Shown in pieces: positions 1,296 to 1,531 of a DNA stretch of 15,013 nt; position 1 is the stretch's first letter, and each line of letters starts with the position of its first letter. The notes under the pieces are model-generated. The model saw only the letters and a list, made by a program, of their open reading frames with translations, was not told the DNA's origin and ran no database searches. Origin of the DNA: a virus (Duplodnaviria; Heunggongvirae; Uroviricota; Caudoviricetes); IMG/VR virus record IMGVR_UViG_2534682078_000025. The stretch is one strand, 5' to 3'. The position numbers and the translations under genes are program-made.

Positions 1296-1307
1296 AGCAT
1301 AAAAAAA

Positions 1308-1333
1308 TCCCGCAGTGTATGGAGGCTGCGGGA
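1308..1333 (-). terminator. Intrinsic terminator-like hairpin with T-tract on the minus strand (A7 tract 1301-1307 on plus strand); could also act on the I transcript
   Basis: Stem TCCCGCAG (1308-1315) / CTGCGGGA (1326-1333) with 10-nt loop, directly flanked by A7 on the plus strand (T7 on the minus strand). Confidence 0.45.
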
Positions 1334-1466
1334 ACAGAAAATGAAGATTAACCACAGGGAGTTTTGTTTTTATTGGCCCGAAAAAACTGTAACGCCCGGG
1401 AATGATATCTGCCACGGGGGCGTACAGAAAATGTGAAGAAATTCAGAAATTTTATTCCGTCATGAC

Positions 1467-1497
1467 ACAGGCACCCTCCGGGATGCCTGTTGTTTTT
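1467..1497 (+). terminator. Terminator-like hairpin plus T-rich tail about 35 nt upstream of the J start (possible attenuator)
   Basis: ACAGGCA-CCC...GGG-TGCCTGT stem (1467-1490) followed by TGTTTTTGTG (1491-1500). Confidence 0.4.
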
Positions 1498-1531
1498 GTG
1501 CGTAACAGTTATCACAGTAAAGGGTGAGACA

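Follow-up and report, generated by a model that had tools for sequence, protein, structure and literature searches.

Genomic setting of the I–J spacer

The window, by which we mean the whole stretch of 15,013 nucleotides that was analysed, comprises the tail end of a lambdoid prophage that belongs to Shiga-toxin-producing E. coli, and a prophage of the O111:H- strain 11128 is 99.76% identical to it over 7.5 kb. The gene order is K, I, spacer, J, lom and a tail-fibre gene, followed by an AT-rich effector region. Gene K (19–717) shows NlpC/P60 and JAB matches. The gene for tail assembly protein I (615–1295, plus strand, stop codon TAA at 1293–1295) constitutes the left border of the spacer; its product matches the Pfam family Lambda_tail_I (1.2e-15), and the counterpart in O111 11128 is annotated as a tail assembly protein. 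The right border is gene J for the tail tip and host specificity protein (1532–5013, plus strand), which starts with an ATG at 1532 and is preceded by the ribosomal binding site AGGGTGAG at 1521–1528. In the window J reads as two frame-shifted ORFs and has single-base insertions that the intact J of O111 11128 lacks.

The spacer between I and J spans 1296–1531 and is 236 nt long, whereas the gap between the same genes in phage lambda is 60 nt (15445–15504), and the enlargement pointed out in a preliminary description of this DNA is thus real. Among 5426 complete E. coli genomes the spacer occurs in 758, the median being 5 places per genome, and 147 phage records, mostly of Stx-converting phages, contain it as well; it is therefore no chance feature. 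For comparison of variants the I protein was used as bait, which gave 80 viral and 21 genomic loci, and 40 distinct I–J spacers were taken in which the adjoining I protein is more than 90% identical to that of the window. The spacer is without annotation in every RefSeq and phage record inspected.

A probable small RNA gene on the minus strand

The left part of the spacer very probably carries a transcription unit on the minus strand, predicted from the sequence to run from about 1380 to 1301 and thus antisense to the tail operon. By homology to the sRNA PasB, and by a covariance model described below, it should be an sRNA gene of the PasB/EcOnc22 family, about 80 nt in length (1301–1380, transcribed from 1380 to 1301), where the 5' end is placed from the published 5' end of PasB and the length of about 80 nt is a prediction. 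The gene ends with a putative intrinsic terminator (1308–1333, minus strand) consisting of an 8-bp stem, UCCCGCAG/CUGCGGGA, with the arms at 1308–1315 and 1326–1333, a loop of 10 nt at 1316–1325, and a run of seven U at 1307–1301. The predicted folding energy of this hairpin is -13.9 kcal/mol (z = -3.9), and none of 200 shuffled sequences folded as well, so that the minus-strand hairpin with a T7 tail noticed earlier at 1301–1333 proved to be stable. A simple terminator scan called neither this hairpin nor the one preceding J, its pattern being limited in loop size and mismatches. A small inserted transcription unit or an sRNA had been among the possibilities raised in the preliminary description; that suggestion stands, with the strand now assigned as minus, antisense to the tail genes, and with the minus-strand hairpin as the terminator of the sRNA.

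Read along the sRNA strand, the spacers share a common order of elements. A TAnnnT hexamer at the expected -10 position, a U-run and a variable 5' end are followed by three to four consecutive ARN triplets, a (C/U)UCC motif resembling an anti-Shine-Dalgarno sequence and a short variable segment, and then by the UUAAUCUUC block, the terminator and a tail of six or seven U. In the window the A-rich (ARN)4 run AAUAAAAACAAA, with the anti-Shine-Dalgarno-like CUCCC after it, is found at 1357–1374 (minus strand); a run of three to four ARN triplets and a YUCY motif are retained in the variant types shown, and the flanks vary. The ARN run may bind the distal face of Hfq, by analogy with the motifs described by Tree et al. 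2014 (PMC4104026). Of the single-stranded blocks, UUAAUCUUC (1343–1351, minus strand) is the one best conserved in every variant type, a few of which differ in it by a single base, and it is a candidate seed; the predicted seed of PasB is the single-stranded region right before the terminator (Zhu et al. 2026, 10.64898/2026.05.13.724894).

The stem of the terminator is constant across the unique variants but for one mismatch in one variant, and the loop is hypervariable, with 10–17 nt among the variants. It had been allowed for at the outset that the spacer of related prophages might lack any conserved structure; this is not the case, since in their spacers the terminator stem is near-invariant and the plus-strand hairpin before J covaries.

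The 31-codon reading frame opposite the sRNA

A possible ORF of 31 codons, from an ATG at 1341 to a TGA at 1434–1436 and with a GGAGG upstream, had also been proposed. The ORF (1341–1436, plus strand) exists and has the peptide originally quoted, but neither its start, nor its frame, nor its length is conserved. Since the minus-strand RNA overlaps the start codon of an existing reading frame, one might think of a small protein encoded by the plus strand, for instance a type I toxin with the minus-strand RNA as antitoxin. One phage record has a 32-codon “hypothetical protein” annotated at the spacer, and the first few codons are alike in several variants, all of which would suit such a protein. 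The variants nevertheless make this reading extremely improbable. Among 39 unique spacers the start codon is ATG in 20, ACG in 17 and ACA in 2, so that it is lost in 19 of 39; the reading frames shift and comprise between 7 and 97 codons, with unrelated C-termini. The peptide has no hydrophobic helix, and the GGAGG (1321–1325), part of the loop of the minus-strand hairpin, precedes the ATG by 15 nt, a greater distance than is normal for a Shine-Dalgarno sequence. The likeness of the N-termini, where several variants share an “xKIN..EL” beginning, is accounted for by the sRNA core that is conserved on the other strand. A type I toxin–antitoxin pair has a conserved, usually hydrophobic toxin ORF under its antisense RNA, and the ORF found here is not of that kind. 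On account of the loss of the start codon and the unconserved frame and length we reject the 31-codon ORF as a gene.

Relationship to PasB and EcOnc22–24

The sRNA of the window is, with high probability and as judged by sequence, a member of the family of Hfq-dependent prophage sRNAs that has been described as PasB in EPEC and as EcOnc22–24 in EHEC Sakai. PasB (Pearl Mizrahi et al. 2021, PMC8550237, Table S6) is an RNA of 83 nt on the minus strand of NC_011601.1, from 1466343 to 1466261, and is located in prophage PP6 of EPEC O127:H6 E2348/69 between two plus-strand genes. According to RefSeq, the genes flanking PasB are those for tail assembly protein I, which ends at 1466255, and gpJ, which starts at 1466496, and the spacer of E2348/69 (240 nt) aligns end to end with that of the window. 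The probe used for the northern blot of PasB (PMC8550237) spans the homologue of the minus-strand hairpin of the window; the blot gave a band of the expected size. PasB is strongly reduced in the hfq mutant, with reported log2 fold changes of -6.8 and -2.4. In RIL-seq PasB has 37 partners, mostly in CDSs or 5'UTRs, and is nearly always the second RNA of the chimeras.

EcOnc22, EcOnc23 and EcOnc24 are homologous Hfq-CRAC peaks in the Sakai prophages Sp15, Sp14 and Sp11, respectively, with their function listed as unknown (Tree et al. 2014, PMC4104026, Table S2), and EcOnc22 was seen on a northern blot as an RNA of about 85 nt that is destabilised without Hfq. The published coordinates refer to NC_002695.1, and the shift to NC_002695.2, of about +140, was derived from one landmark, AgvB1, which is listed at 1941783–1941835 and was found at 1941922–1941978. 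In NC_002695.2 the three peaks are located at I–J spacers on the strand opposite to the tail genes, and with the shift applied that of EcOnc22 falls inside the predicted sRNA at 2902848–2902926. From this one-landmark shift we infer that EcOnc22–24 are the sRNA of the Sakai I–J spacers, and the equation is supported by the fact that the three peaks share the same offset to the J starts.

In pairwise comparisons the RNA of the window is 75% identical to PasB and 75% identical to the Sakai type, and the latter two are about 75% identical to each other. A covariance model (R1) built from 12 family members, from which sequences of the window type were left out, gave a single match in the window, at 1301–1379 on the minus strand with 56.7 bits (E 7.3e-10); the runner-up reached 12 bits. 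At the loci of the window, PasB and Sakai alike the RNA lies between I and J on the strand opposite to the tail genes, and the window RNA has the Rho-independent terminator with U7 and the predicted length of about 80 nt that belong to the family. The copy in the window is thus largely already explained, as a further sequence variant of a family known under two names, and these names, given independently in EPEC (PasB) and in EHEC (EcOnc22–24), are here joined into one family.

A search of the window against Rfam gave no family at the gathering score, and matches at E values up to 10 were at chance level; nor was any family found at the E2348 type locus of PasB, the Sakai loci or the loci with spacers of 340 and 851 nt. 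Among the families without a match in the window at gathering score are AgvB (RF02702), AsxR (RF02703), Esr41 and STnc100. Identity with AgvB or AsxR can be ruled out, as those sRNAs are located at the PR' moron site and not between I and J. EcOnc54 (Sp6) was considered as a further I–J sRNA and was discarded, since it sits in the antirepressor moron between L and K.

Spacer classes and copy number

Beside closely related I genes the spacers fall into three classes of length, 235–260, 336–343 and 851 nt. Those of 235–260 nt contain the sRNA alone. The spacers of 336–343 nt contain the sRNA together with the CRP-like site described below and a different terminator that looks bidirectional, and in the spacer of 851 nt the sRNA is preceded, on the same (minus) strand, by a gene for Cu,Zn superoxide dismutase, sodC, with its own terminator (Pfam Sod_Cu, 3.9e-32). 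I genes of the lambda type, with about 61% identity, are followed by the bare junction of 60 nt.

The sRNA of the window type together with its -10 region (92 nt) was found at 1559 places in 469 genomes; a genome has 3 such places in the median and 8 at most, and the hosts listed include strains of O157, O111 and O103. The PasB type in the strict sense was found at 999 places in 956 genomes, with a median of 1. PasB has been described as single-copy, with variants in the census that differ by a few nucleotides (Zhu et al. 2026, 10.64898/2026.05.13.724894), and the window type is absent from the list of Tree et al. 2014 (PMC4104026). The window type is thus a distinct multi-copy branch of the family in STEC and EHEC that has seemingly not been counted in the PasB census, and STEC genomes hold several diverged copies of the family, the median of 3 applying to the window type.

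An RNA lying strictly between the same two tail genes, and antisense to them, might act mainly in cis by pairing with the late I–J mRNA after induction and altering its processing or the expression of J. The conserved position would suit such a role, and so would the result of a scan of the window for trans targets with the single-stranded 5' part of the sRNA, where nothing scored above shuffled seeds except the cis complement; the perfect complement over 1301–1380 is the only strong pairing partner in the window. The duplex would, however, end about 150 nt upstream of the ribosomal binding site of J and 5 nt after the stop codon of I, and thus cover no translation signal. The 37 RIL-seq partners of PasB are in trans, and its place as the second RNA in the chimeras is that of trans-acting sRNAs. 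The sRNA has also been kept beside sodC, although the rest of that spacer has been replaced. A mainly cis-acting RNA is on these grounds improbable. Pairing in cis is compatible with the cassette explanation given below and does not exclude it.

Putative promoter and CRP-like site of the sRNA

A probable -10 hexamer, TACAGT, is located at 1386–1391 on the minus strand, with a weak -35-like sequence, TGGCAG, at 1409–1414. The TAnnnT pattern is kept among the variants (TAGTGT in E2348, TACTTT in Sakai and TAATGT in others), is found 6–7 nt upstream of the published 5' end of PasB, and survives in the sodC class of spacers, where everything upstream differs. The -35 region is poor, and a consensus promoter scan over 1000–1900 called no promoter.

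Upstream of the hexamer there is a CRP-like site, AAATGTGA-AGAAAT-TCAGAAAT, at 1428–1449, with the half-sites TGTGA and TCAGA, spaced by six nucleotides, at 1432–1436 and 1443–1447; the second deviates from TCACA. It is the sole match in the 15-kb window, where 0.05 would be expected by chance. No spacer of the 240-nt or 340-nt class deviates in the half-sites, while the central 6 bp vary. The site stays with the sRNA side of the spacer, being retained in the 340-nt class despite the replacement of the downstream part. With the centre at 1439.5, about -60.5 from the start assumed for the sRNA, and a distance of 40–60 bp upstream of the -10 hexamer, the site appears to be placed as in a class I CRP promoter.

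PasB and Spot 42, which CRP represses, behave in opposite ways: PasB is the more abundant in overnight LB culture, and the level of Spot 42 rises about 5-fold in DMEM. This pattern fits CRP control, and growth phase is an equally simple explanation for it. Neither of the two Pas papers (PMC8550237; 10.64898/2026.05.13.724894) mentions CRP or a promoter. If functional, the CRP-like site, lying upstream of the presumed promoter, would make the level of a prophage sRNA depend on the carbon status of the host.

With a second -10-like hexamer, TATCAT (1408 to 1403; TATAAT in E2348/69), the CRP-like site would be centred at about -43.5 and the RNA would be about 96 nt long. This hexamer is less likely than the proximal TACAGT as the -10 of the sRNA: it is lost in the sodC class, although the sRNA persists there, and the RNA sizes reported, 83–85 nt, fit the proximal hexamer. 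A second, convergent sRNA on the plus strand, ending at the hairpin before J, was also considered and was rejected, as the promoter scan found no promoter for it; the sequence between the sRNA promoter and the pre-J hairpin is better explained by the CRP-like site.

A wider reading would make the I–J cassette a family of sRNAs under class I CRP control that has diversified in EHEC and STEC into seed and loop variants, with up to 8 copies per genome. We regard this as rather unlikely; were it true, the copies, each of them perfectly antisense to the late I–J transcript, could also couple the carbon status of the host to the expression of the tail genes after induction.

The hairpin preceding gene J

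The other structure in the spacer is a terminator-like hairpin on the plus strand, the sense strand of the tail operon, at the junction to J (1467–1500). It has the sequence CAGGCACCC-UCCG-GGAUGCCUG, where 1467/1468–1476 pair with 1481–1489/1490 around a UCCG loop, and is followed by the U-rich tail UGUUUUUGUG at 1491–1500. The predicted energy is -16.6 kcal/mol (z = -3.2) with one C.A mismatch in the window, which bears out the earlier remark on a stable plus-strand hairpin with a T-rich tail (1467–1497) before J. With a GC-rich stem and an immediate U-run the hairpin has the make-up of an intrinsic terminator, termination itself being a prediction.

The 60-nt spacer of lambda has an equivalent structure, AAACCGCC-UGCG-GGCGGUUU, with a U-rich tract behind it, about 20 nt before J. 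Equivalent hairpins with a U-run are also found in lambda-like prophages of E. coli, Shigella and E. ruysiae, and equivalent hairpins occur beside distant I and J homologues (35–45% identity) in Enterobacter, Rahnella and Pantoea. Across the genera there is no sequence relationship between the stems, most loops are YNCG tetraloops, and the U-run comes after. When 14 hairpins were aligned on their loops, 94.4% of the cells were paired, compared to 72% in shuffled sequences and 36–50% with the partner column slid, though this alignment was built around predicted hairpins and thus leans towards structure. Compensatory, two-sided changes were found in 7 of the 9 pairs. Within the E. coli spacers pair 7 alternates between U-A and C-G, and it is C.A in the window. 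The presence in lambda and in other genera indicates that the junction hairpin is an ancestral element and therefore no part of the inserted DNA. A literature search on the lambda I–J hairpin gave nothing relevant.

Late transcription in lambdoid phages is antiterminated by Q. The junction hairpin looks like an intrinsic terminator that such Q-modified late transcription would read through.

An attenuator controlling J had been suggested earlier, in which case the expansion of the spacer would be a transcriptional attenuator and the rest of the spacer would serve that control. The stability of the hairpin, the U-rich tract after it and the compensatory changes by which the structure is kept agree with this, and in the 340-nt class the corresponding position is taken by another terminator-like hairpin. 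As a cause of the expansion the suggestion nevertheless fails, since a like hairpin is already present in the 60-nt spacer of lambda and in the short spacers of other genera, which leaves the added DNA unexplained. In addition, the sodC class is without the pre-J hairpin, Q-antiterminated late transcription should pass through, and neither a leader peptide nor an alternative pairing was found. We consider the attenuator highly improbable.

The conservation of the junction hairpin from lambda to Pantoea is a testable lead. That it is a conserved control element of lambdoid tail operons, lambda included, is put forward jointly with the catabolite-control reading of the cassette, and the two together are an unlikely combination in our estimate.

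Proposed explanation of the enlarged spacer

The explanation that we favour, with a probability of roughly 0.8, is that the spacer has received a cassette with an sRNA of the PasB/EcOnc22–24 family, for which expression and Hfq binding are taken over from the homologues. The extra DNA of about 176 nt would be a cargo cassette of the “moron” type, placed between the stop codon of I and the ancestral pre-J hairpin. Its sRNA (about 80 nt, from about 1380 to 1301) would end at its own terminator, which abuts the stop codon of I. In the lysogen the sRNA would be expressed from a weak σ70 promoter with the -10 hexamer TACAGT (1391 to 1386), assisted by cAMP-CRP bound in class I position at 1432–1447. 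The RNA would be bound by Hfq via the U7 tail and the (ARN)4 run, and might pair in trans with mRNAs of the host and of prophages through the single-stranded UUAAUCUUC and CUCC motifs, while the variable 5' end and terminator loop could give each copy in a genome a separate specificity. The pre-J hairpin (1467–1500) would be a separate and older element of the I–J junction. What was observed here, namely homology, synteny, orientation, stability of the terminator and conservation, leads to the identification of the sRNA, and the facts on expression come from the homologues.

A practical point for annotation is that an unannotated spacer holds a regulatory gene. The general understanding of prophage sRNAs is unchanged by one more member and some details of its anatomy; the CRP-like site, the unification of PasB with EcOnc22–24 and the junction hairpin are modest additions.

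Comparison with known systems

PasB is located, like the sRNA of the window, in the I–J spacer of a lambdoid prophage in antisense orientation, and is in the same class of length (83 and about 80 nt). The terminator stems are equal save for the outermost pair, which is C.A in PasB, and both have a U7 tail. The UU(A/G)AUCUUC core, the ARN run with CUCC, the position of the -10 hexamer and the upstream CRP-like site are also common to the two, and they differ at the 5' end, in the segment that precedes the core and in the loop of the terminator. The spacers with EcOnc22–24 likewise align with that of the window, and differ in the 5' region and in the loop.

AgvB and AsxR of EHEC prophages (Tree et al. 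2014) are also short, Hfq-binding prophage sRNAs at a moron insertion site, in which a conserved 3' module is combined with a variable 5' region and with ARN motifs, but they are located downstream of PR' near Q and stx and have no sequence similarity to the window. The cassette as a whole resembles the morons of lambdoid phages (Juhala et al. 2000), for example prophage sodC, in being an autonomous unit of promoter, gene and terminator between late genes that is expressed from the prophage, with the difference that the cargo in the window is a non-coding RNA only.

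The I-J spacer and its hairpins

Directly ahead of tail gene J lies a plus-strand junction hairpin (window 1467-1500), a GC-rich stem followed by a U-run and situated 15-40 nt 5' of the J start, and the tetraloop is usually YNCG. The same element is present in lambda, within NC_001416 15445-15504 (L111), and in the lambdoid tail operons of several genera, with further examples among the loci collected around I homologues at L090, L091, L093, L094, L098, L100, L101 and L108. The stems differ in sequence among these loci but the pairing is kept. No description of this hairpin was found in the searchable literature.

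There are two further length classes of I-J spacer. Those of 336–343 nt (L064, L074 and L088) have the junction hairpin replaced by a different terminator of bidirectional appearance (CCCCGGTATC...GATACCGGGG), while the 851-nt spacers (L026, L030, L063 and others) contain sodC, encoding a Cu,Zn superoxide dismutase, on the minus strand with its own terminator and located upstream of the PasB-like sRNA gene. In spacer variants where J begins with GTG (L051 and L055, spacers of 259–260 nt), the heptamer CAGACAT is repeated in tandem directly 5' of the ribosomal binding site of J, and the copy number varies from 2 to 4.

The terminator of the sRNA (window 1308-1333, loop 1316-1325) and those of its homologues have an unusually large loop of 10–17 nt, which is hypervariable among the variants whereas the stem is invariant. 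On the RNA strand, most of the loops open with CUCC or UUCC, a second motif that resembles an anti-Shine-Dalgarno sequence.

Enterobacterial lambdoid tail genes were also encountered on short contigs in the genome records of unrelated organisms, namely Streptomyces flavalbus (L088), Parendozoicomonas (L092), a Clostridiales MAG (L099) and a Geobacteraceae MAG (L095). The first three show 94–100% identity to the E. coli I protein, and L095 resembles an Enterobacter-type tail locus with about 40% identity to I of the window; contamination is the likely source of the tail genes in all four records.

Split genes and the downstream region

Gene J is intact in the O111 11128 prophage (L001), but compared with that copy J of the window has single-base insertions, near 1561 and near 2500, that divide it over two frames. 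The two sequences are 99.76% identical over 7.5 kb, with 7 gap openings. Further 3', the genes for the SopA/NleL-like effector and the DUF4765 protein are each broken into two ORFs as well (window 7553-9900 and 10491-13891). The split ORFs of the three genes could be due to indel errors in the assembly, or they could be real pseudogenes. The region 7001-14000, 3' of lom (window 5080-5679) and the tail-fibre gene, is AT-rich cargo with a GC content of 0.29–0.42, and it codes for the pentapeptide/SopA-like HECT E3 ligase effector, the large DUF4765 protein and a fragment of a Mutator-family transposase.

A moron between tail genes L and K

O111 11128 contains a second moron, located between tail genes L and K (L001 3036-4630), which encodes Arc-family repressors as well as an antirepressor. 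The EcOnc54 Hfq peak of Sakai Sp6 (L110) is positioned in the region equivalent to this moron.
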